DNA from: an uncultured delta proteobacterium
GTDB lineage: Bacteria; Myxococcota; UBA727; VGSZ01
Assembly (NCBI GenBank): GCA_963775425.1
Contig: CAVZJB010000005.1
Location: 352,001 to 416,000 of the forward strand
DNA: 64,000 nt
Direction of reading: 5' to 3'
Shown: piece by piece, positions 83 to 10,624 of the stretch
Position numbering within the stretch: position 1 is the stretch's first letter
Layout: each line of letters starts with the position of its first letter
Program-made: the position numbers and the translations under genes
The notes under the pieces: model-generated
The model's input: the letters and a program-made list of their open reading frames with translations, nothing else
Database searches by the model: none
Told to the model about the DNA's origin: nothing

Positions 83-1018
83 GTGCCCATCCTCCGCGGC
101 GTCGCGTACCACATCGATGAGATCGCGCCGATCGACCGCATCCCCGAGCTCGCGGAGGACGCGGAGCTGCTGGCCGCCTTCAAGGAGAGCGGACACAAGA
201 CCTACGGGCACTCCAACCAGAGCCTCGCCGCACAAGCGGTGAGCTCCACCCGGAAGACGCTGGCCGCGGCCAACCTGTCCGTCGGCGACGTCGAGGCGAT
301 CGTTCTCGGCACCTCGGAGATCCCGGAGCCCAACCGCTATCCGGAGATGCTCAGCACCGAAGTGTTGACGGCGCTCGAGCTCTCCGACGTTCCCGTAATC
401 GGCGTGACGCTGGCCGGCTGCGCCAACTACAGCAGCGGGCTGCGCGTGGCGCGGGACATGGCCTCGGCCGAGGGCCTGCGACACGTCCTCGTCATCGAGA
501 CCAACCAGGTGCGCGGAGGGATGAAGCGCGCCGTCGTCGACAACGGCGACGCCGTCTCGATCTTCGCCGACGGCGCGGCGACCTGCGCCGTGAGCGTCGA
601 GGACGATGCCTCCTTCCGCGGCCGGTCTTCGGACTTCGAGCTGGTCGCCATGGCGCAGACCATCAAGCCGCTCGACTGGGCGAGCGCGGAGGAGAACGTC
701 ATCGCGGCGAACAACTTCATGGGGTTCCGCCGCGTCATCGACGAGGCCATGGAGCGCGCCGGCGCGACGCGCGCCGACTTCGTCCAGAGCTTCTTCTCCA
801 ACATCGCCATCGGGCTCGTGAACGCCAACGCAGAGGTGCTGGGCCTGCCGCCCGTGTACACCGCCAACAACAGCCGCACCGCGCACGTCTGGAGCTGCGA
901 CAACCTGATCAACCTCACGGACTACTGCGCCGCCGAGCAGGTGCCGGCGGGCGCCCTGTTCCTGCTTTTGTCCAACGCCGAGTCGTACTTCTCGGCGATC
1001 GTGTGCCGCAAGCGATGA
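83..1018 (+). CDS. 3-oxoacyl-ACP synthase III (FabH/KAS III)-like protein, non-canonical catalytic set (probable acyl/aminoacyl transferase)
   Basis: Thiolase-fold motifs: GDVEAIVLGT, catalytic LAGCANY, IFADGAATC. The HQAN motif is replaced by FSNI and the GNT motif by AHVWSCD. Probable GTG start at 83 after GAAGG (ORF track opens at 59). Stop overlaps the next ATG (ATGA). Confidence 0.75.
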   Translation: MPILRGVAYHIDEIAPIDRIPELAEDAELLAAFKESGHKTYGHSNQSLAAQAVSSTRKTLAAANLSVGDVEAIVLGTSEIPEPNRYPEMLSTEVLTALELSDVPVIGVTLAGCANYSSGLRVARDMASAEGLRHVLVIETNQVRGGMKRAVVDNGDAVSIFADGAATCAVSVEDDASFRGRSSDFELVAMAQTIKPLDWASAEENVIAANNFMGFRRVIDEAMERAGATRADFVQSFFSNIAIGLVNANAEVLGLPPVYTANNSRTAHVWSCDNLINLTDYCAAEQVPAGALFLLLSNAESYFSAIVCRKR

Positions 1019-4000
1019 ATGCCCACGCAGACCTGAGGCCCGGCTTCCAGCGGTTGCTGGACCACATCGCGTCGCGCGTCGTCCCCGGGGTTTCGCTGGA
1101 GGCGGCGCTGCACGACATCCTCGCGCTCGGCGGCCGCCAGGAGCTCGCGTTCGGTATGAAGTCGCTGACGCCGCTGCAGCGCGCGGTGGTCGATGAGCTC
1201 GGTGGGCGGACGTCGACGCTCGTCGACGCCGACGCCGCCACCGCCGGCGGAGCCCGCTGGTACCTCGGCCAGTGGAGCTACGGCCGCATCTGGCTCGCCC
1301 CCGAGCGGCCGGCCGATCCCGAGTGCCGCCTGCTGGCTGCGCTCTCTCTGCCCGCGGCGACGCACGACGCCGTCGTCGCGCGCGCCGTCAGCATCCAGCA
1401 GTCGTGGCAGACGTGCGACCCCGAGATGGACGCGTTCTTCGACAACCTCGACGCCGAAGGACTGCAGCGCGTGCTCCACGAAGTGCACGAGACCGTCGAT
1501 CACACCGATCCGATGCTGCTCTATGTCGGCGACGACACCCTCACCAATTTCGGCAAGCTCAACAACCTGCAGGAGCGCGGCGCCGACCTGCCGCGCTGCT
1601 TCCACCGCCGCGCGCGGGAGATGGCGCGCGACCGCTGGACGACGGCGGAGCGGATCTACGTCTTCTGCGTCTACTGGCTGCGCAGGGCCGGCTGCCGCGG
1701 CGAAGAATTCTGCGGCCGCCAGCTCAACCCCACGCTGCTGCGCGAATACTTCGCGGAGCGGTTGGCGGGCTACCGCGCGCTCGCGCCGGAGCTCTGCGAG
1801 GAAGAAGCCTCATCCATCGCCGACCAGGCGCGGCTGCTCGCGCGCTGCAAGGCCGGGAGCGCACAGCAGCTCTTGACGTATCGCTGGATCAACGGGCTCA
1901 CGTTCTACAAGGAGGAGCGCGTGTGCTCGCGCTCGAGCGCGCGCTTCGGCGTCGACACGCTGCCGCCGGCGCTGCGCGTGTACATCGCGGACGCGTGCGG
2001 CGTCGACACCGGGCAGCACGAGTCGCTCGCCTCGCTGTTCGACGCGTGCGTGGCGCAGATGGCGCGCCGCGGGTTCGCCAGCGACGACGACAAGCTGAAC
2101 GCGTTCGAAGGGCTGCTGAAGGCGATTGTCGACTGCGCCATCGACGCCACCGGCAGCGACATCGGCATGAGCCGTGGCACGCGCGACGTCGCGCGCATGC
2201 AGCGCGCGTTCGGCGAGCAGCGTTATGCGGAGATCTGCGGGTGGCAGAGCCCCGACTACTTCTGCGCGGTCTTCCCGAGCGCCGCCCTGCGAGAGCAGCT
2301 CGCGGGCAACCCCGAGCTGCTGGTGAAGATCCTGTACGCGTGCTCGGCGCGCATGCAGTTCAACCACTGGCACTACATCCCGGGCCACTGCCCGCCCGAG
2401 GGCGTGCCGGCCGACCGGCACTACTACTACCCGCCCGGCGTGGCGGACCTCGCCGAGTGGAGCGACCAACATCACACGGGCCACGTGTTGGCGCAGGTGC
2501 GCTACAGCATCCGCTCGCCGGCGCCGCTGTCGTTTGGCGGAAAGCTCTACCCGGGCATGGTCGACCTGCGCCTCTTTCGCCAGAGCAGCGCGCCGTACAC
2601 GCCCGAAGAGCTCATGACGGCGCTGACGTACACGGACTACGTGCGCGCGCTGCAACAGTCGCTGTCGGATCACCTCGCGCGCGGCGGCGACCCTCTCGTG
2701 GTCGCCGCGTTCGGCAAGGATTGGTACCGCGACTATTACGGTGGCCGGCGCGCGCCCGGCGCCGCTGTGGAAGCCGCCTCCGCTGCGACCGGAGCGCCTG
2801 CGCCTGCGCCTTTCGCGATGGCGTCGGCGCGCGCGGCGCCGAGCACCGCGCTGTTCCGCATCCTGTGCCGGCACGCCGCCGAGGACGCCGGGCATGCCGC
2901 GCTGATCGAAGCGCGCCAGCCCGAGCCGGACGTCACGATCAGCTCCCGCAGGCTCCTCGCTCACGCGCAGGCGCTGCGCGACGCCATGCTCGGCGGCGGC
3001 CTCGCGCCCGGCGCCGCCGTCGCGGTCTTGTCCGAGCGCGCCGTGCATCAGACGGTGGCGATCGTCGCCGGCATCGCCAACGGGCTGATCGTCAACCCGC
3101 TCAACCCCGCGCTCTCGCCGCAGGTGCTGCGGGGGCAGATGGAGCACGCGCAACCCGCTTGGCTGATCGTCGACAGCGGCGTCGCGCCGCCGGCGGGTCT
3201 GCCGGGCACCGTGCGGTGCATCGCCTGGGACGACGTGTTTGCGAACGTCGCCCAACACGAAGCGCTGCCTGTCCCGACCGTCGACGACGGCGCCCCTCGC
3301 GAGGACGCGGGCGGCCTCTTGATCTACACGTCCGGCACCACGGGCGCCTCGAAGGGCGTGCTCTTGAGTTGGTCGAACATCGAAGCCAACGTGCGCTACG
3401 CCGTCGACGCGCTCGGCTTCGAGCCCGGGCAGGTGACGGGCAGCCTGCTCCCGCGCTTTCACACGTTCACGCTCATCAGCGACCTCTTCCCGGCGCTGCT
3501 GCTCGGCGGCACCGGGGTGCTGGCAGACACCTTCGATCTGTCCAACGTGAAGTGGACGGTGGACGCCTTTGTTCGCCACGGCGTGCGTTCGTACAGCGCC
3601 GTGCCCGTCATCTTCGACGCGCTGTGTGCCTTGAACGCCTGGGCCTCCGCGCCGGCGCTGCGCATGGCGATCGCCGGCGCTGCGCCGCTCAAGGAGAACA
3701 CGCGGCTCACGTATAAGAAGGCGTTCGGCCACCCGATCATCCCCTGCTACGGCCTGAGCGAGACGACGTGCTTCGCCGCCATCTCACCGCCGGACGCCAT
3801 CCGACCCGGCGCCGTCGGTCGCGCCGCCGGCATCGAGATCCGCGTCGTCGACGAAGAGGGCGCTCCGCTCGGCAGCGGCGTCACCGGTGAGCTCGAGATG
3901 CGCGGCGCTTCGGTGATCAACAGCGGCTATTTCCACGACACCGACGGCCAGTTCGCGCGCGCGTTCACCGCCGACGGCTGGTTCAAGACGGGCGACGTCG

Positions 4001-4374
4001 GACGCATCGACGACGACGACTATGTGTACGTAACCGGCCGCAAGAAGAACATGGTCATTCGCGGCGGCGAGAAGGTCTATCTCGAAGACGTTGACCGTTG
4101 CCTCGCCGAATTCCTGGGCGTCCTCGACTGCGCCAGCATCGTGCTGTGCCAGCCGAACGAGCCCGACCTGGCGTTGACGTTCATCGTCACCTCCGGTTCT
4201 CCACTGCCGCTTGACGAGGTCACCGCGCACGTGCGCGCCGCGCTTTCGGCGCATCACGTCCCCGACCGCATCTACTTCGTCGAGCGCATCCCGCGCACGG
4301 CGACCGGCAAGGCCTCGCATCCGGAGCTGCTCGCGCTGTCCAAGGCGCTGCGCTCCTCCCAGGAGGGCGCGTGA
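1015..4374 (+). CDS. Fusion protein: ~570-aa uncharacterised His-rich N-terminal domain + AMP-binding (ANL) adenylating enzyme
   Basis: C-terminal half has LIYTSGTTGASKG, YGLSET, WFKTGDVG, TGRKKNMVIRGGEK and PRTATGK. An Ala/Pro linker lies near 2750-2850. N-terminal domain has RMQFNHWHY and WSDQHHTGHV..VRYSIR. ATG at 1015 is coupled to the upstream TGA. Confidence 0.85.
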   Translation: MNAHADLRPGFQRLLDHIASRVVPGVSLEAALHDILALGGRQELAFGMKSLTPLQRAVVDELGGRTSTLVDADAATAGGARWYLGQWSYGRIWLAPERPADPECRLLAALSLPAATHDAVVARAVSIQQSWQTCDPEMDAFFDNLDAEGLQRVLHEVHETVDHTDPMLLYVGDDTLTNFGKLNNLQERGADLPRCFHRRAREMARDRWTTAERIYVFCVYWLRRAGCRGEEFCGRQLNPTLLREYFAERLAGYRALAPELCEEEASSIADQARLLARCKAGSAQQLLTYRWINGLTFYKEERVCSRSSARFGVDTLPPALRVYIADACGVDTGQHESLASLFDACVAQMARRGFASDDDKLNAFEGLLKAIVDCAIDATGSDIGMSRGTRDVARMQRAFGEQRYAEICGWQSPDYFCAVFPSAALREQLAGNPELLVKILYACSARMQFNHWHYIPGHCPPEGVPADRHYYYPPGVADLAEWSDQHHTGHVLAQVRYSIRSPAPLSFGGKLYPGMVDLRLFRQSSAPYTPEELMTALTYTDYVRALQQSLSDHLARGGDPLVVAAFGKDWYRDYYGGRRAPGAAVEAASAATGAPAPAPFAMASARAAPSTALFRILCRHAAEDAGHAALIEARQPEPDVTISSRRLLAHAQALRDAMLGGGLAPGAAVAVLSERAVHQTVAIVAGIANGLIVNPLNPALSPQVLRGQMEHAQPAWLIVDSGVAPPAGLPGTVRCIAWDDVFANVAQHEALPVPTVDDGAPREDAGGLLIYTSGTTGASKGVLLSWSNIEANVRYAVDALGFEPGQVTGSLLPRFHTFTLISDLFPALLLGGTGVLADTFDLSNVKWTVDAFVRHGVRSYSAVPVIFDALCALNAWASAPALRMAIAGAAPLKENTRLTYKKAFGHPIIPCYGLSETTCFAAISPPDAIRPGAVGRAAGIEIRVVDEEGAPLGSGVTGELEMRGASVINSGYFHDTDGQFARAFTADGWFKTGDVGRIDDDDYVYVTGRKKNMVIRGGEKVYLEDVDRCLAEFLGVLDCASIVLCQPNEPDLALTFIVTSGSPLPLDEVTAHVRAALSAHHVPDRIYFVERIPRTATGKASHPELLALSKALRSSQEGA

Positions 4375-5312
4375 TCATCGATAGCCACGCGCACGCGGCG
4401 CTGGAGGAGGTGCTGCCCACGCGCTTCTTCGACGGGTGGGTCGACAACCTCGAGCGCTTGTTGCCGTCCGATGCGTCGCCGGCGCAGCGCGCGGCGCTCA
4501 GCGCGATGTTTCGCGCCGCAAACCAGGACCCGGGCTGCGACCGGCTGGTGGCCGAGATGGATCGCGCCGGCATCGCCAAGACGGTGCTGTTGATCGTCGA
4601 CTTCGGGTACGCGTATCCCGATCAGCTCGACGCGCTCGAGAGCATCTACGAGCTGCATCGTCAGCTCATGCAGCGCCACGCGGGCCGCTTCATCGTCTTC
4701 GCGGGCATCGATCCGCGCCGCGGTCAGGCGGGCGTCGACCTGCTGGAGCGCGGCCTGCGGGATTGGGGCTTTCGCGGGATGAAGATCTATCCCCCGTGTG
4801 GCTACTCGCCGGACGCGCGCGAGCTCGATCCCTTCTACGAGGTCTGCACGCACTACAGCGTCCCGGTGCTGTCCCACATCGGGCCGACGTCGCCCACGTT
4901 GTCGTTCAAGCACACGCGGCCCGAGCACATCGAGGACGCGGCGTTCCGCTTCCCCGGCGTGAACTTCATCCTCGGCCACGCCGGCGTCACGTGGCGCGCG
5001 GAGGCCAGAATGCTCGCGGCCTTCAGGCCGAACGTCTACCTCGACCTCTCGGGCTTCCAGCCGCACTGGAAGCGCGGGGAGCTCGACGGGATCCTGGCCG
5101 AGCACAAGCGTGACGGCGTGCTGCGCAAGCTCTTGTTCGGCACGGACTGGCCCATCCACTTCCTGCACGGCGATCAGCAGCAGTGCGTGGAGGCGTTCCG
5201 CGACTGCGCGCGGCGCGGGGTCATCACCGAGGAAGAGCTGGGCTGGCTCTTCTACCGGAACGCGCAGAGGCTGTTCGGGGACGCCGCCGGCGGCGAGGAA
5301 GCCGCGAGGTAG
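4371..5312 (+). CDS. Amidohydrolase_2 family metallohydrolase/decarboxylase
   Basis: IIDSHAH (HxH), GMKIYPPCGY, VLSHIG, ILGHAG, VYLDLSG, LFGTDWP. GTGA overlap with the upstream gene. Confidence 0.85.
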   Translation: MIIDSHAHAALEEVLPTRFFDGWVDNLERLLPSDASPAQRAALSAMFRAANQDPGCDRLVAEMDRAGIAKTVLLIVDFGYAYPDQLDALESIYELHRQLMQRHAGRFIVFAGIDPRRGQAGVDLLERGLRDWGFRGMKIYPPCGYSPDARELDPFYEVCTHYSVPVLSHIGPTSPTLSFKHTRPEHIEDAAFRFPGVNFILGHAGVTWRAEARMLAAFRPNVYLDLSGFQPHWKRGELDGILAEHKRDGVLRKLLFGTDWPIHFLHGDQQQCVEAFRDCARRGVITEEELGWLFYRNAQRLFGDAAGGEEAAR

Positions 5313-5359
5313 GGTGCGCGCCGCGCGCTGGGCTACCATTGGCTGGAAAGGGAACTCTC

Positions 5360-5584
5360 ATGTCAACCCGGCAGGCCGTGCTCGATGTGCTCGCCAAACA
5401 TGCGCAGTGCGACGCCGCCACGCTCTCACCCGAGGACGTCCTGGCCGACGTCGGCGTCAATTCTCTCAAGTTCATCATGGTGCTCCTGGAGATCGAGCAG
5501 GTGACGGGGAAGAAGGTCATGGACATCAACAAGATCGGCAAGCTGAAGACGGTGGGCGACGTCCTTGCGCTGACCGAGTCGTAG
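5360..5584 (+). CDS. Stand-alone acyl/peptidyl carrier protein (74 aa)
   Basis: MSTRQAVLDVLAKHAQ...LADVGVNSLKFIMVLLEIE...LKTVGDV. Phosphopantetheine Ser sits in GVNSL. ATG at 5360 follows AAAGGGA. Confidence 0.85.
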   Translation: MSTRQAVLDVLAKHAQCDAATLSPEDVLADVGVNSLKFIMVLLEIEQVTGKKVMDINKIGKLKTVGDVLALTES

Positions 5585-5593
5585 GGAACCCCG

Positions 5594-6019
5594 ATGCACG
5601 ACATCCGCCTCGCCCGACAAGACGACGAGATCGCCGCGACGTTCGCCGTGATGCACCAACTGCGCACGCATCTCGTCGAGAGCGACTACGTCGCGCTGGT
5701 GCGTAAGCTCCAGGCACAAGGGTACTTGTTGGCCTACGTGGACGACGGCGAGCGCGTGGTGGCCGCCGCCGGTTTCAAGCTCGGCGCCTCGCTCGCCTGG
5801 GGCGACTACGTCTATATCGACGACCTCGTCACCGACACCCGCGCGCGCTCGGCCGGGCACGGTGCGCGGCTGATGGCATGGGTCGCCGATTACGGCCGCC
5901 AACGCGGCTGCACCGAGCTCCACCTGGACTCCGGGGTGCAACGCTTCGCCGCGCACCGCTTCTATCTGCGCGAGCGCATGGACATCACCTGCCATCACTT
6001 CTGTCTACGCATCGCGTAG
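5594..6019 (+). CDS. GNAT family N-acyltransferase
   Basis: YIDDLVTD..ARSAGHGARLM (acyl-CoA binding motif A), LHLDSG, AHRFY. Confidence 0.9.
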   Translation: MHDIRLARQDDEIAATFAVMHQLRTHLVESDYVALVRKLQAQGYLLAYVDDGERVVAAAGFKLGASLAWGDYVYIDDLVTDTRARSAGHGARLMAWVADYGRQRGCTELHLDSGVQRFAAHRFYLRERMDITCHHFCLRIA

Positions 6020-6037: not shown

Positions 6038-6679
6038 TCAGCGCACCGGACCGGCGGGCACCGCGAGCGGGGCGCCAGACGCGGCCACGGCGCGCGCGAC
6101 GTCGGGCGGCAGCGCTCGCCGGCGGGGCGCCGGGGGCGCGTCGAGCAGCGCGCGGGCGAGCTCGGCGGCGGCCTCGAGGGCGCCGATGGGCACGCGATCG
6201 CTGGCGGCGACGTCGACGAGGAGGCGGCCGTCGGCGAGCTGGACGGCGAGCGCGCCGTGCGCGTCGAAGAGCGCGTCGACGGCGGCGCGCACGCGGGTCC
6301 GCGCACCGCTGCCGGCGGGAGCGTCGCCGCGCTCGCCGTCGGGGTGGCCCGGGCGCGCGAGGTCGAGGGGGAGCGCTTCGGGGCCGCGCGCGAGCGCGGC
6401 GCGGTAGATGAGGAGGCGGGGGGAGCGGTCGGCGCGCTCGATCCGTCCGCGGATCTCCCAGGTCGGCACCTCGTCGCCGCCGAGGCAGAGGCGGCCGCGC
6501 ACGAGCTCGAGCCGGGCCACGCCGTCGTCGAAGCGGGCGCACGGGTGCGCGAAGGGAAGGCCCGCCGTCGACGACCGCAGGCGCGGATCTCCGGCGAACG
6601 GCCTGCGCGCTGACCGGCCCGCGAGCGCCGCGAACACGGCGACGATGGTTCCGAAGATGATCGTGGCGGCGAGCCCCAT
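6038..6679 (-). CDS. Hypothetical protein with N-terminal membrane anchor
   Basis: MGLAATIIFGTIVAVFAALAG hydrophobic start. Protein-like composition, unlike the overlapping frames. Confidence 0.55.
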   Translation of the reverse strand: MGLAATIIFGTIVAVFAALAGRSARRPFAGDPRLRSSTAGLPFAHPCARFDDGVARLELVRGRLCLGGDEVPTWEIRGRIERADRSPRLLIYRAALARGPEALPLDLARPGHPDGERGDAPAGSGARTRVRAAVDALFDAHGALAVQLADGRLLVDVAASDRVPIGALEAAAELARALLDAPPAPRRRALPPDVARAVAASGAPLAVPAGPVR

Positions 6680-6790: not shown

Positions 6791-7747
6791 TCAACGCAGC
6801 GCGAGGACGCTCCGGGCGACGCCTTCGGCGTCGAGGCCGTGCTTTTTGTAGAGCGCCTTGGGGTCGCCGGACTCGCCGAAGACGTCCTGCACGCCGAGGC
6901 GCAGCAGGCGCGCCGGCGTCCGCGACGTCAACGACTCGGCCACCGCCCCGCCGAGGCCGCCGAGCACGTTGTGGTCCTCCACCGTCACCAGGCCGAGCTT
7001 GCACTCCCGGGCCGCCTTCTCGATGGCGTCGTCGTCCACGGGCTTGATGGTCGACGCGTTCAAGACGCGGGCCGACACGCCCTGCTTGGCGAGCAGCGCC
7101 GCCGCATCGACGGCGCCGCCGACGCAGCCTCCGGTCGCGAGGATGGCGACGTCGGTGCCCTCGAGGAGCGTGGGGAACCTTCCCGGCACGAAGCGGTAGC
7201 CCTCGGGGTGCACCCGCGGCACGTCCTGCCGCGTGAGCCGCAGGTACGCCGGGCGCGGATCCGTCGCGAGGTGGTCCACCATCTGCGCGGTCTCGACGTC
7301 GTCGGCCGGCTGCAACACCAACATGGTGGGCAGCGAGCGCATCAGCGCCAGGTCCTCGAGGCCTTGCTGCGAGTAGCCGTCGGGGCCGATGCCGACGCCG
7401 GCGTGCGTGCCGACGATGCGCACGCGCGCCTGCGAGTACGCCACGCTCATCTTGATCTGGTCGAAGCGCCCCGTGATGAAGCAGGCGAACGAGCAGCAAA
7501 ACGGCGTGTAGCCCGAGAGCGCGAGCCCGGACGCGGTGCCGAGCATGTTCGCCTCCTGGATGCCCATCTCGAAGAAGCGATCGGGGTGGGCCTTGGCGAA
7601 CACCACGGACATCGTGGACTTGCTGAGGTCGGCGTCGAGCACCACGACCTTGTCGTCGCGATCGCCGAGCGCCTTGAGGGCTTCGCCGAACGCCTTGCGC
7701 GTGGCCATGGGCTTGACGACGTCGACGGCTGCGGTGGGGTGGTTCAT
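6791..7747 (-). CDS. Transketolase, C-terminal (pyrimidine-binding) subunit
   Basis: ATRKAFGEAL, LDADLSKST, EMGIQEANM, GPDGYSQQ (His of GxSHQ replaced by Gln), YLRLTR, TVEDH..GGLG. True ATG at 7747 overlaps the upstream stop. Confidence 0.92.
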   Translation of the reverse strand: MNHPTAAVDVVKPMATRKAFGEALKALGDRDDKVVVLDADLSKSTMSVVFAKAHPDRFFEMGIQEANMLGTASGLALSGYTPFCCSFACFITGRFDQIKMSVAYSQARVRIVGTHAGVGIGPDGYSQQGLEDLALMRSLPTMLVLQPADDVETAQMVDHLATDPRPAYLRLTRQDVPRVHPEGYRFVPGRFPTLLEGTDVAILATGGCVGGAVDAAALLAKQGVSARVLNASTIKPVDDDAIEKAARECKLGLVTVEDHNVLGGLGGAVAESLTSRTPARLLRLGVQDVFGESGDPKALYKKHGLDAEGVARSVLALR

Positions 7748-8592
7748 GCGAGCTCCTTCATGGCGCGCTCGTACTCGTCTTTGTTCGGCGCCTTGCCGTG
7801 CCAGCCGACGGTGTCCTTCTCGAAGAAGCTCACGCCCTTGCCCTTGATGGTGTGGGAGAGCACCACCGTAGGCCTGGCGGTCTCCGCGCGCGCGGCCGCG
7901 CACGCCGAGCGAATCTCGTCGACGGAGTGGCCGTCGATGGTCAGCACGTTCCAGCCGAACGCGCGCCACTTTTCGGCCAGCGGCTCGAGGGGCATGACGT
8001 CGGAGACCAGGCCGTCGATCTGTCCGTTGTTCCAGTCCACGAACACCGTGAGGTTGGTGGCGCCGAGCTTGGGCGCCGACAGCGCCGCCTCCCACACCTG
8101 CCCCTCCTGCAGCTCGCCGTCTCCGGTGACGACGTAGCAGCGCCAGGCCGGGCCCTTGTCGCCGCCGGTCGACGCGGCGCCGCCGAGCTTGCCGGCGAGC
8201 GCGATGCCCTGCGCCACGCTCAGGCCCTGCCCGAGGGAGCCTGTGGACGCCTCGATGCCGGGGAGGAGCGCGTTGGCGGGGTGTCCCTGCAGGGGCGAGC
8301 CCAGCTCCCGCAGCGTGCTCAGATCGGACAGCGGGAAGTAGCCGCGCTCGGCCATCACCGCGTACAGCGCGGGGACGCCGTGGCCCTTGGAGAGCACGAA
8401 GCGATCGCGCTCGGGCCACGAGGGGTTCTTCGCATCGAAGCGCATCTCGCCCGAATAGAGGGTGAGGATGATCTCGAGGGCGGAGAAGCTCCCGCCGGGG
8501 TGGCCGCTGCCGGCCTTGGTGATGGCCTCGAGGATGTGGCGCCGGAGCTTCTTGGCGGTCTCCCGGAGCTCGTCCACGCTGATTTGCTGCAT
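7744..8592 (-). CDS. Transketolase, N-terminal (TPP-binding) subunit
   Basis: GSGHPGGSFS, RDRFVLSKGH, LQGHP, STGSLGQG, GDGELQEGQVWEA, TIKGKG, WHG. ATG at 8592. Confidence 0.93.
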   Translation of the reverse strand: MQQISVDELRETAKKLRRHILEAITKAGSGHPGGSFSALEIILTLYSGEMRFDAKNPSWPERDRFVLSKGHGVPALYAVMAERGYFPLSDLSTLRELGSPLQGHPANALLPGIEASTGSLGQGLSVAQGIALAGKLGGAASTGGDKGPAWRCYVVTGDGELQEGQVWEAALSAPKLGATNLTVFVDWNNGQIDGLVSDVMPLEPLAEKWRAFGWNVLTIDGHSVDEIRSACAAARAETARPTVVLSHTIKGKGVSFFEKDTVGWHGKAPNKDEYERAMKELA

Positions 8593-8647
8593 GCCCCCGC
8601 TTATGTTCCCGGTGCGTCGACGACAAGAGGTGGCGTAGCTTCCGCCC

Positions 8648-10624
8648 ATGGAAAACGGTTCGCCCGAGGCATCGCTCCTCGCGAAGAGCCCCGCGCCCGC
8701 GGCGCGCGGCGTGTTCCGCTTCATCGATCGGCTGCTGCCGGCGGTGGTGCGGACCACGGCCGACGAGCTGCGGCGCGGTCGCATCTTCCTGGCCATCTGG
8801 GGGCTGTTGTCCCTGGCGGCGTGGTTCTTCGCGTGGGCCATCCTCAACGACGGGGCCACGTCCGGCGTCCCCGCAAACGCCGTCGTCCTCATCATCGGCG
8901 GCGCGCTCGCCACGATCATCCTCCCCATGGCGCACTGGCTCGAGAGCGTCCGCCGCGCAGGCGCCGTGCTCACCGTGGAGTTCGTCGCCGTCGTGCTCTT
9001 CCTCGGCTGGACGGGCAGCGGTCCCGGCGACGCCTCGCAGTGGTTCCTGATGCTCGCGCCCCTCGTCGGCGCGTTTCTGGTCGGCACGCGCGCGGGCCTC
9101 GTGGCCGCCGGCGTGTCCATCGTGGGCACGTTCGGCCTCTACGTCGCCAAGGACGTGCTCCAACTGCCGTTCGGCGTGCGCGACGCCACCGCCGACTGGT
9201 TCGACGCCATGGGAGGCGCGTTCGTCATCGGCATCGCCGCCGTCATCGCCTTCGCGTGGGAGGCGGCGCAGCGTGACAGCTTGACCCGCGTCGCCGAGGC
9301 CCTGCAGGAGCTGCGCGGCAAGAACAGCGAGCTCGAGGCGTTGGCGCAGCGGTTCGCCGAGGCGCGGGATCGTGCCGTCGAGGAGAACCAGCGCAAGGGC
9401 GTGTTCCTCGAGAGCATGCGCACCTTCTCGGAGCAGCAAGGCCACGCGCTCGAGCGCACGCGCCTGGCCACCGCGCAGCTCGCCGACACCATTCGCGCCA
9501 TCTCGACGTCGGTGGAGACGCTGGCGGCGTCGAGCCAGGCCTCGGACACCACCGTCTCCGACATGGCGGAGAGCGCGTCGCGGGTGTCGCAGACGGCGCA
9601 GTCGCTGGTGGCCGGCGTCGAAGAGGCGGACCGGGCGCTCGCGGGGCTGACGGCGGCGGTGGCGTCGGTGCAGGCGCAGTACGACGACCTGCGGCGCGGC
9701 GCCGAGAGCACGGCGGCGGCCATGCTCGAGATGGAGCGGTCGGTGTCGCTCGTGGAGCAGCGCGCGGTGCGTACGGTGGAGCTGTCAGACGCCATGATCC
9801 GCGACGCCGAGCGTGGGCGCGAGGCGGTGCGGCGCACCATCGCCGGCGTCGACGACATCCGGGCGAACGCGCGCCTCGCGGGCGAGGTGATCCGCACGCT
9901 CGACGGCCGCGTCGCCGCCATCAGCGCCATCAACAGCGTCATCGACGAGGTGGCGGTGGAGACCAACGTGCTTGCGCTCAACGCGTCCATCATCGCGGCG
10001 CAGGCGGGGGAGCGCGGACAGGGCTTCGCCGTCGTCGCGGACCAGATGCGCTCGCTCGCGGCGCGCACCGCGCTGTCCACGCGCGAGATCTCCCTGGTCA
10101 TCCGCGCGGTGCAGTCGGAGGCAAAAAACGCCGTCGACGCCATCCAGAAGGGTGAGCGCGCCGTCGACCAGGGCGTCACGTTGTCCGAAGACGCCGCCGG
10201 CGCCCTCGAGCAGATCGTGTCCTCGGCGCGCCAGGCCACCGAAGAGGTCCGCGGCATCGAGCAGGCGACGATGGAGCAGGCCAAGCGCGCCCGCGACGTC
10301 GGGGGGGCGATGGGGGAGGTCACGCGCCTCGTCTCCGACGCCAGCGCGGCCACCTCCGAGCACGGGCGCTCGGCGCGCCTCATCGAGGCCACCATGCAGC
10401 GCCTGCGCGCGGCCGCGCCCGACCTCGAGCAGCGCAGCCGCCAGCAGGCCGACGGCGCACGCCTCGCGCGCGCGGCGCTCGCAAAGATCTCGGAGATGGC
10501 CAGGCGCCTGTCCACGGTGCAGAGCGACCAGACCCGCTCGAGCGCGCAGACACTGCGCGCCGTCGAGGAGATCCAGCGCGCGCAGCGCGGCCAGGACGAG
10601 GCCATGCGCCAGCTCTCGGAGTAG
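8648..10624 (+). CDS. Methyl-accepting chemotaxis protein with multi-pass N-terminal membrane sensor
   Basis: Signalling hairpin IDEVAVETNVLALNASIIAAQAGERGQGFAVVADQMRSLA. About 6 hydrophobic segments in the first 200 aa, then long coiled coils. Confidence 0.9.
   Translation: MENGSPEASLLAKSPAPAARGVFRFIDRLLPAVVRTTADELRRGRIFLAIWGLLSLAAWFFAWAILNDGATSGVPANAVVLIIGGALATIILPMAHWLESVRRAGAVLTVEFVAVVLFLGWTGSGPGDASQWFLMLAPLVGAFLVGTRAGLVAAGVSIVGTFGLYVAKDVLQLPFGVRDATADWFDAMGGAFVIGIAAVIAFAWEAAQRDSLTRVAEALQELRGKNSELEALAQRFAEARDRAVEENQRKGVFLESMRTFSEQQGHALERTRLATAQLADTIRAISTSVETLAASSQASDTTVSDMAESASRVSQTAQSLVAGVEEADRALAGLTAAVASVQAQYDDLRRGAESTAAAMLEMERSVSLVEQRAVRTVELSDAMIRDAERGREAVRRTIAGVDDIRANARLAGEVIRTLDGRVAAISAINSVIDEVAVETNVLALNASIIAAQAGERGQGFAVVADQMRSLAARTALSTREISLVIRAVQSEAKNAVDAIQKGERAVDQGVTLSEDAAGALEQIVSSARQATEEVRGIEQATMEQAKRARDVGGAMGEVTRLVSDASAATSEHGRSARLIEATMQRLRAAAPDLEQRSRQQADGARLARAALAKISEMARRLSTVQSDQTRSSAQTLRAVEEIQRAQRGQDEAMRQLSE

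Follow-up and report, generated by a model that had tools for sequence, protein, structure and literature searches.

KinJ and FzmP are heme b enzymes of a formerly unrecognised family, the 'hypothetical protein' of the hydrazino cassette, which, partnered by a low-potential ferredoxin, make hydrazinosuccinate by reducing nitrite and coupling it to L-aspartate (Kenney et al., 10.1101/2025.05.27.656397). The same chemistry has been reported for FsnU2/FsnV (Shi et al., 10.1101/2025.06.26.661531), and family members belong to the pathways of kinamycin (KinJ/KinI), fosfazinomycin (FzmP), fluostatin (FsnU2/FsnV) and negamycin (NegJ). The present analysis concerns a five-gene operon at the start of a 64,000-nucleotide stretch of DNA (the window; forward strand of contig CAVZJB010000005.1, positions 352001–416000, assembly GCA_963775425.1) from an uncultured delta proteobacterium of the Myxococcota. 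One of its proteins joins a domain that almost certainly, judging from its homologues, belongs to the KinJ/FzmP/FsnU2/NegJ family to an adenylate-forming (ANL) ligase.

A second set of described pathways, outlined for triacsin, azaserine, N-nitroglycine and dob (10.1101/2021.05.12.443849, PMC10445470, PMC13274452, PMC13061610), handles hydrazinoacetate on a carrier protein. A GNAT (Tri31/AzsS/DobB) succinylates the acid, and an ANL enzyme (Tri29/AzsP/DobC) loads only the succinylated form onto a free carrier protein (Tri30/AzsQ/DobQ). A C45 peptidase (Tri14/AzsT/DobA) then removes the succinyl group, an acyl-ACP dehydrogenase (Tri22/AzsF/DobM) forms the hydrazone, and a KAS III protein (Tri13/AzsD) moves the unit to another carrier, a transfer that involves no condensation. 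The Pfam signature given for this set is PF13302, PF00501, PF03417, PF02770, PF13434 and PF01266 (PMC13061610). The two themes meet in the 'cluster E' neighbourhoods of Kenney et al., where KinJ homologues accompany a carrier protein and homologues of Tri31/AzaB/NngQ and Tri29/AzaC/NngO at >55% identity, and for which those authors infer glycine as substrate. In these sources, both the KinJ-type family and the handling of hydrazino acids on carrier proteins are already published.

We consider it reasonably likely that the window operon is a compact pathway for a carrier-bound hydrazino-acyl unit of a small, undescribed N–N-bond metabolite. All five genes lie on the plus strand within 83–6019, as the initial annotation had placed them, and comparison with Pfam and NCBIfam agreed with the identities it had proposed. 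They encode a KAS III-like thiolase-fold protein of 311 aa (83–1018), the fusion (1015–4374), a metal-dependent hydrolase of the Amidohydro_2 family (PF04909; 313 aa, 4371–5312), a stand-alone acyl carrier protein (ACP) of 74 aa (5360–5584) and a small GNAT N-acyltransferase of 141 aa (5594–6019). Within the 1123-aa fusion, the KinJ/FzmP/NegJ-family heme hydrazine-synthase domain takes up residues 1–576 (1015–2742), an Ala/Pro-rich flexible linker residues 577–612 (2743–2850) and the ANL domain the remainder (2851–4374). Four of the genes were supported by the open reading frame (ORF) listing together with a filter on third-position GC (0.87–0.94), and the listing allowed alternative starts at 83 or 59 for the KAS III-like gene and at 1015 or 1003 for the fusion. 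Direct reading also confirmed the annotated start/stop overlaps, ATGA at 1015–1018 between the KAS III-like gene and the fusion and GTGA at 4371–4374 between the fusion and the hydrolase gene.

The N-terminal ~600 residues of the fusion had no match in Pfam, NCBIfam or the PDB sequences, and the ESM Atlas returned nothing usable. Searching 5.8 billion clusters with a word index gave 16 proteins, all with an ANL domain: the window protein itself, 11 full-length fusions (1093–1178 aa) and four shorter entries (696–784 aa, 25–44% query coverage). The 12 full-length proteins can be aligned end to end with a mean column identity of 62%, and since the 11 others come from independent sources, the fusion is not an assembly artefact. 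An exhaustive phmmer search of 1.84 billion representatives yielded 231 homologues of the domain, 203 of them at E ≤ 1e-10 and 149 at E ≤ 1e-30; among the 150 matches listed, most were unannotated stand-alone proteins of 560–650 aa. Twelve stand-alone homologues scanned with Pfam had no significant family, and the names of 20 homologues that were looked up were 'hypothetical protein' or absent, except that of one fused protein (P0009), called a class I adenylate-forming enzyme family protein.

Genomic context identified the family. Scanning metagenome contigs with a 51-sequence alignment of the domain gave 80 loci (numbered L below), and a separate scan of the genome collection gave only two; genes were called around the homologue in 30 of the metagenome loci, and 103 neighbouring proteins were scanned against Pfam. 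In L041 and L068 the genes run Lyase_1/ADSL_C, GNAT, MFS transporter, homologue, amidase and glutamine synthetase, matching what Shi et al. (10.1101/2025.06.26.661531) describe for fzmR-Q-P-O-N (lyase, acetyltransferase, P, amidase, glutamine synthetase), and parts of this order recur in L038, L043, L066 and L080. The window domain matches the cassette-type member of L041 with E 5e-66 and 31% identity over ~570 residues, and also those of L043, L068, L038, L066 and L080. Elsewhere, a Fer4+DUF3470 ferredoxin gene directly follows the homologue (L022, L027, L029), or ATP-grasp ligases, aminotransferases and MFS exporters stand beside it (L018, L044, L062, L077). A gene for a bacterial nitric oxide synthase (NOS) lies ~0.8 kb after a stand-alone homologue (L048:9132–10184), which fits the NOS-guided discovery reported by Shi et al. 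Ferredoxin, NOS and ATP-grasp neighbours are the contexts that Kenney et al. give for KinJ relatives, and they led to the KinJ/FzmP family.

The residues implicated in KinJ and FsnU2 were compared with the window domain by numbering offset, and not by direct alignment to KinJ, FzmP, FsnU2 or NegJ. At an offset of −51, KinJ C468, R497, M498, N501, H504, H541, R551 and R570 fall on window C417, R446, M447, N450, H453, H490, R500 and R519, and at −42, FsnU2 H532, R488, R542 and R561 fall on H490, R446, R500 and R519. KinJ K356 does not follow the offset, the nearest conserved lysine being K299. Six of these window residues (R446, M447, H453, H490, R500, R519) show no variation in the 51-sequence alignment, and conservation of C417 and N450 is at least 90%; the candidate axial ligand His490 is invariant in the 12 fused as well as in the 51 diverse sequences. 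An AlphaFold2 model of the domain (predicted local distance difference test, pLDDT, 78.9; predicted template modelling score 0.77) found nothing in the PDB at E ≤ 0.001 with Foldseek, only weak GAF/phytochrome rows. In a VIA-align structure search, residues 310–560 resembled GAF domains with Z 9.8–8.0 (PixJ 9.0, DosS 8.6), the highest value being barely above the range that the tool calls common, and this parallels the likeness of KinJ to DosT and PixJ described by Kenney et al. The family assignment follows from the fzm-type cassette contexts, the residue mapping and the GAF-like C-terminal half taken together. The window domain thus shares with KinJ, FzmP, FsnU2 and NegJ the ~570-residue homology, the axial histidine, the arginine trio, the Cys/Met/His/Asn set, the GAF-like half and the lack of a Pfam family. 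It differs in being joined by an Ala/Pro linker to an ANL ligase, in standing next to Amidohydro_2, ACP, small GNAT and KAS III-like genes instead of the lyase/amidase/glutamine synthetase cassette, in falling into a separate clade, and in having a host that is not an actinomycete.

The operon is one instance of a recurrent module. The window proteins were compared by tblastn with 84 loci (80 from metagenomes, two from the genome collection and two from relatives), complemented with Pfam scans and a separate ACP search. KinJ, ANL, Amidohydro_2, ACP and GNAT genes occur together in six complete loci (L002, L007, L010, L012, L015, L019) with GC contents of 36–72%. L010 (60% GC) has the gene set of the window, with identities of 47% (KAS III-like), 56% (KinJ), 59% (ANL), 76% (Amidohydro_2), 41% (ACP) and 62% (GNAT). 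Fusion, second ANL, Amidohydro_2, ACP, GNAT and a GcvT-like gene are found in L002, a Myxococcota metagenome-assembled genome, and the order is the same in L007, from a genome (G002) of the same family as the window genome; the short contig L003 has the fusion and a second ANL and ends inside the Amidohydro_2 gene. L019 reads KinJ-ANL, Amidohydro_2, ACP, GNAT. In L012 (57% GC) the KinJ gene is separate (Amidohydro_2, ACP, KinJ, two ANL, alpha/beta hydrolase, GNAT), as it is in L015 (36% GC; HDO/cupin, ANL, Amidohydro_2, ACP, GNAT, reductase/hydrolase, KinJ). The short contigs L009 and L011 carry the KAS III-like gene before the fusion, in two copies in L009. Co-occurrence of the five genes outside the window, on which the initial annotation had made its proposal depend, is thus found in full in L010 and in part in L009 and L011. 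The module proteins remain associated although their genes have been fused, split and rearranged and the GC content of the loci varies twofold, which indicates that they are functionally linked.

Within the phylum the module was present in four of 301 sampled genomes, the window genome and one decayed copy included, so that it is accessory and not housekeeping. The KinJ-type family is rare there, and three of 41 relatives carry it. The decayed copy, in a same-family relative (L008; G004:C117, ~8374–10068), consists of part of KinJ, containing an in-frame TAG, 72 residues of Amidohydro_2 and an intact-looking GNAT gene. Directly upstream of the module in L010 and on the same strand (L010:466–4956) are genes for an ANTAR regulator and for an NMT1_2 binding protein, permease and ATPase, the last two matching nitrate ABC transporter models (TIGR01183, 245.9 bits, cut-off 209; TIGR01184, 335.8 bits, cut-off 291.8); this linkage points to environmental nitrate or nitrite as nitrogen donor. 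Six heme-biosynthesis genes (HemC, HemA, HemY-like amine oxidase, HemN, HemD-like, HemB) lie directly upstream of the KinJ-ANL module in L002 (L002:649–8081), a neighbourhood that is suggestive for a heme enzyme and may be coincidental. A GcvT-family gene follows the module or a stand-alone KinJ gene in five loci (L002:16107–17318, L007:4802–6046, L016:10227–11603, L014:2172–3548, L040:5663–6781) and is not found beside the window operon; the family is one of tetrahydrofolate-dependent aminomethyltransferase/demethylase-like proteins, and the L007 copy has its best NCBIfam match in the C-terminal part of trimethylamine N-oxide demethylase. In L015, a heme-oxygenase-like (Haem_oxygenas_2/CADD-like) domain fused to a cupin (L015:513–1682) adjoins the ANL-Amidohydro_2-ACP-GNAT genes, and a thioester-reductase/alpha-beta-hydrolase fusion (L015:4856–7090) precedes the separate KinJ gene.

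Among 39 KinJ domains placed in a quick maximum-likelihood tree, those associated with the module and two rows from short contigs formed one group with an SH-aLRT value of 93, below the 95 that the tool stars. It was distinct from the cassette clade and likewise from the one that holds L079 and L061. Four loci fit the published cluster E (L057, L079, L083, L084), with a PF13302 GNAT, an ANL with AMP-binding_C_3 and, in L083 and L084, a C45/AAT peptidase; the KinJ part of such a locus (L079, with L061) falls into a different clade from that of the window module. The separation of the module clade from the Asp-using cassette clade also bears on what the domain does. It might carry out another reaction dependent on nitrite or nitric oxide (N-nitrosation, N-hydroxylation or amination), or act as a heme sensor of nitric oxide or nitrite that gates the ligase, with no hydrazine-derived N–N bond being made. 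Few family members have been assayed, Kenney et al. stress that the scope of substrates and products is open, and the C-terminal half has the fold of heme- and bilin-binding sensor GAF domains. Against this, all residues implicated in catalysis are kept, not the heme ligand alone, and the surrounding operon is a biosynthetic one that includes a carrier protein and a GNAT, like the known hydrazine pathways. We regard a role of this kind as improbable.

The linker between the two halves of the fusion is predicted to be disordered (pLDDT < 50 for residues 579–610) and is variable and gapped across the 12 fused proteins. The ANL domain matches PF00501 (AMP-binding, 191.7 bits, residues 623–972 of the ORF) and PF13193 (27.7 bits), and both its YTSGTTGxxKG loop (Y771–K780) and G1098–K1099, with the A10 lysine Lys1099, are invariant in the 12 fused proteins. 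Among solved structures, malonyl-CoA synthetase (E 1e-45) and oxalyl-CoA synthetases come closest to it, its top NCBIfam matches are fatty-acid and malonyl-CoA ligases, and the amino-acid adenylation model TIGR01733 gave 143 bits against a cut-off of 317. The domain is probably an acyl-ACP ligase for a small (di)carboxylic acid. Its relatives are compatible with an N-acylated hydrazino acid or hydrazinosuccinate as substrate and prove neither. The ACP matches the Pfam PP-binding family with E 3.2e-5, has a candidate attachment serine in the motif GVNSL, and its gene is preceded by a GGAAAGGG ribosome-binding site (direct reading). Homologues with a DSL motif were found in L010, L012, L013, L015 and L019; L002 has a PP-binding ORF and L007 an ACP-like ORF with a GMSSL motif, the latter by direct reading only.

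The kinship of the ANL domain with fatty-acid and malonyl-CoA ligases, and the lack of PKS, NRPS and tailoring genes nearby (polyketide synthases and nonribosomal peptide synthetases), would also suit an ordinary acyl-activation or lipid-modification operon, in which a common fatty or dicarboxylic acid is placed on the ACP for N-acylation of a cell component and the N-terminal domain is irrelevant or vestigial. No RNA or DNA sequencing run was listed for the operon, which speaks neither for nor against this. Points against it are the strong constraint on the domain in the 12 fusions (62% mean column identity, invariant active-site residues), the occurrence of the module in four of 301 genomes of the phylum, and the nitrate transporter linked to the module in L010. 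Such an operon is highly improbable.

The physical fusion of the N–N-forming and loading domains equally suits channelling of a free product and chemistry on the carrier, and the ACP is kept in every complete module locus. The ANL domain might accordingly act first, loading a small amino or dicarboxylic acid on the ACP, with the KinJ-like domain forming the N–N bond on the tethered substrate and the GNAT and amidohydrolase acting afterwards. Against this order, the characterised family members use free L-Asp, and conservation extends to all three of the arginines presumed to bind carboxylates and nitrite. The KinJ part is moreover a separate protein in L012 and L015, and the ANL domain resembles malonyl and oxalyl acid-CoA ligases and not amino-acid adenylation domains (143 against 317 bits for TIGR01733). 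Loading before N–N bond formation is in our view unlikely.

Amidohydro_2 is the most conserved protein of the module, with 76% identity in L010 and 43–51% in L002, L007, L012, L015 and L019. It matches its Pfam family with 122.9 bits over positions 1–288 of 289, and its metal site is intact: the HxH pair (His6/His8), two further histidines and the aspartate of the last-strand TDWP motif are all present, and the motifs DxHxH, HxGP, GHxxV and GTDWP are invariant in seven homologues. The GNAT matches only PF00583 (Acetyltransf_1, 49.1 bits) and PF13508, its best NCBIfam match being the aminoalkylphosphonate N-acetyltransferase PhnO at 39 bits (cut-off 142). Copies with 43–62% identity occur in L002, L007, L008, L010, L012, L015, L019 and L036.

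The KAS III-like protein scored just under the threshold of ACP_syn_III (PF08545, 23.3–23.4 bits, cut-off 24) and far under that of the FabH model TIGR00747 (44 bits, cut-off 292.1). Aligned with the two canonical FabH proteins encoded elsewhere in the genome and with four homologues, it keeps the nucleophilic Cys113 in an AGCA motif and has Ser239 at the position of the FabH histidine and His268 at that of the FabH asparagine; across the five members of this family the former position reads S/N/N/H/G and the latter is a conserved histidine. Its AlphaFold2 model (pLDDT 74) has a full-length FabH fold (template modelling, TM, scores 0.70–0.78 at 12–19% identity), with acyltransferases such as ChlB3 and DpsC scoring among the best matches by TM. 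It therefore shares the thiolase/FabH fold and the nucleophilic cysteine with FabH/KAS III and with the acyltransferases ChlB3, DpsC, NatS and PqsD, and departs from FabH in lacking the His/Asn pair, in its low identity and in scoring far below the FabH cut-offs. With its catalytic triad incomplete, it was rejected as a true condensing enzyme. For an active site with the cysteine alone, thioester exchange is a better fit than decarboxylative condensation, and the protein is probably a transacylase.

Compared with the triacsin-type pathways, by families and descriptions and not by direct sequence alignment, the window operon has a counterpart for each role except the dehydrogenase: N-acyltransferase, acid-ACP ligase, free carrier, hydrolase and a KAS III-type protein of ~310–340 aa. 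The families are different ones. The window GNAT is a 141-aa PF00583 protein whereas the canonical one belongs to PF13302, and when it was compared by BLASTP (E cut-off 10) with ten PF13302- or FzmQ-type GNATs of related loci, only that of L084 was listed, with E 1.8 over 10 residues. The hydrolase belongs to PF04909 and not to the C45 peptidases (PF03417); neither a PF03417 peptidase nor a PF02770 dehydrogenase was found in the operon or within ~20 kb of it. The ANL domain is 26–30% identical to the ANLs that stand beside PF13302 GNATs in KinJ loci. Lysine N-hydroxylase and cupin-MetRS hydrazine synthetase, the source of hydrazine in triacsin biosynthesis, have no counterpart in the operon, where the source would be nitrite-dependent, going by its family. 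The triacsin analogy drawn in the initial annotation consequently stands for the gene logic (GNAT, ANL, ACP, hydrolase, KAS III) and does not extend to orthology of the GNAT and the hydrolase; a load/protect/deprotect/transfer logic like that of triacsin is plausible by analogy. Cluster E likewise combines a KinJ-type N–N enzyme with GNAT, ANL and carrier protein, whereas the window module is built from other protein families and contains a fusion. The words 'fusion', 'fused' and 'amidohydrolase' do not occur in the main texts of Kenney et al. and Shi et al., and a literature search returned no account of a KinJ-ANL fusion or of an Amidohydro_2/ACP/small-GNAT/KAS-like module, within main texts only, as the supplements of Kenney et al. 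might show either.

The family assignments and the genetic linkage are read directly from these data; what follows on the substrate, on the sequence of steps and on what GNAT and amidohydrolase do is a proposed scheme. The KinJ-type heme b domain, with electrons from a ferredoxin encoded elsewhere, would form a hydrazino acid by reductive coupling of nitrite (or nitrate or nitric oxide) to the amino nitrogen of a small amino acid, either glycine or aspartate. The small GNAT could then acylate the distal nitrogen, a step for and against which the case is evenly balanced. The fused ANL domain would adenylate the (N-acyl)hydrazino acid and load it onto the 74-aa ACP, which is likely, as the fusion and the conserved linkage both suggest. 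Amidohydro_2 might deacylate or otherwise process the tethered unit, an assignment that we rate as somewhat less likely than not. Finally, the Cys-only KAS III-like protein may or may not, with about equal plausibility, be what hands the unit to another carrier or nucleophile, with no decarboxylative condensation. The initial annotation's candidate N–N-bond product has thereby gained a basis in the membership of the N-terminal domain in the KinJ/FzmP heme hydrazine-synthase family, while its chemistry and substrate are still those that we infer from relatives. Overall, the N–N reading of the operon is well supported.

Several observations weigh against that reading, beyond the indirect residue correspondence and the modest fold comparison given above. 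Members of PF04909 with known function are mostly decarboxylases, lactonases and hydratases, not amide hydrolases, and the nearest solved sequences to the window Amidohydro_2 are an uncharacterised protein and the LigW decarboxylase. The roles of GNAT and Amidohydro_2 rest on analogy, given that GNAT, hydrolase and ANL are not of the Tri31, Tri14 and Tri29 types and that an acyl-ACP dehydrogenase is missing. The KAS III-like gene is confined to the closest relatives of the window (L009, L010, L011); L002, L007, L012, L015 and L019 do without it and have a second ANL and/or an alpha/beta hydrolase and GcvT instead. The remaining points concern electron and nitrogen supply. Although characterised family members need a ferredoxin, none is encoded in or next to the operon, and a search of the genome for DUF3470 gave no match; an FdxA-like 7Fe ferredoxin encoded elsewhere (C2:108052–108351) is 44–45% identical to KinJ-adjacent ferredoxins and scores 123.9 bits, short of the 135 that NCBIfam requires. 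The genome, 94.55% complete, yielded no dedicated source of nitrite: narG was not found, tblastn gave no NOS or CreE-like match, CreD was likewise not found, and the only Lyase_1 matches look like housekeeping purB. One sulfite/nitrite-reductase-type gene and one molybdopterin oxidoreductase gene were seen.

The ferredoxin and nitrite-source gaps weaken the N–N reading and do not refute it, because, according to the main text of Kenney et al. (10.1101/2025.05.27.656397), most genomes with KinJ lack creDE, FzmP and NegJ have no in-cluster ferredoxin, and out-of-cluster 7Fe ferredoxins are allowed. In having neither an in-cluster ferredoxin nor creDE, the window operon resembles those of FzmP and NegJ.

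The operon lies in an 8.26-Mb genome of 18 contigs with ~72% GC. Its upstream neighbour (contig 350521–351747) is on the opposite strand and encodes an Rgt/MGT-like glycosyltransferase, and the gene downstream of the GNAT gene (6038–6679) is convergent. The operon is therefore complete within 83–6019, and a continuation upstream of base 1, which had been thought possible, is not seen. The divergent glycosyltransferase was rejected as a member of the cluster, as it is not adjacent to module genes in the related loci examined. Pfam and NCBIfam scans found no PKS or NRPS genes within ~20 kb on either side, in agreement with the initial annotation, and a Streptomyces-type PKS/NRPS cluster was thereby ruled out. 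These flanks encode cell-wall hydrolases, a VanX-like dipeptidase, transketolase, a chemotaxis receptor, a GMC oxidoreductase and similar proteins. Scans for promoters and terminators had no hit either in the intergenic region upstream or behind the GNAT gene, where ~0–0.5 hits were expected, and are uninformative at 70% GC.

On the minus strand at 6791–9445, transketolase domains are split over two overlapping frames, with Transketolase_N in ORF 7744–9129 and Transket_pyr plus the C-terminal domain at residues 579–876 of ORF 6791–9445; this may be either a two-subunit split enzyme or a frameshift. A methyl-accepting chemotaxis protein is encoded at 8648–10624. Upstream of the window are Cys-rich repeat proteins with DUF4215 and Dicty_CTDC/EB-like repeats (L001:207–1586, L001:14650–17037). 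Such neighbours, like the Myxococcota label of the related L002, may hint at a host resembling myxobacteria and not actinomycetes.

The operon is a good lead for genome mining and enzymology and introduces no new principle. Mining rules based on the canonical Pfam set would miss the recurrent module of KinJ-ANL, Amidohydro_2, ACP and GNAT, with or without the KAS III-like protein, since it is built from other protein families, and its five genes plus a ferredoxin are small enough for heterologous expression. Only tentatively can the operon be seen as a self-contained 'hydrazino-acyl-ACP factory', in which reductive, oxygen-independent N–N bond formation from nitrite would be physically fused to carrier loading, the enzymes that process the tethered unit, Amidohydro_2 and the Cys/His KAS III-like transacylase, would be without counterpart in known N–N pathways, and the outcome would be small metabolites of a new hydrazine, hydrazone or diazo type, made by bacteria like myxobacteria and by other Gram-negatives of soil and water. 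In that case the fused enzyme might even act on a carrier-bound substrate, which, if true, would be a new mode for the KinJ family. The module occurs outside actinomycetes, in loci with GC contents of 36% to 72%, and the natural KinJ-ANL fusion indicates the next fate of the hydrazino acid and offers a single polypeptide for studies of channelling.

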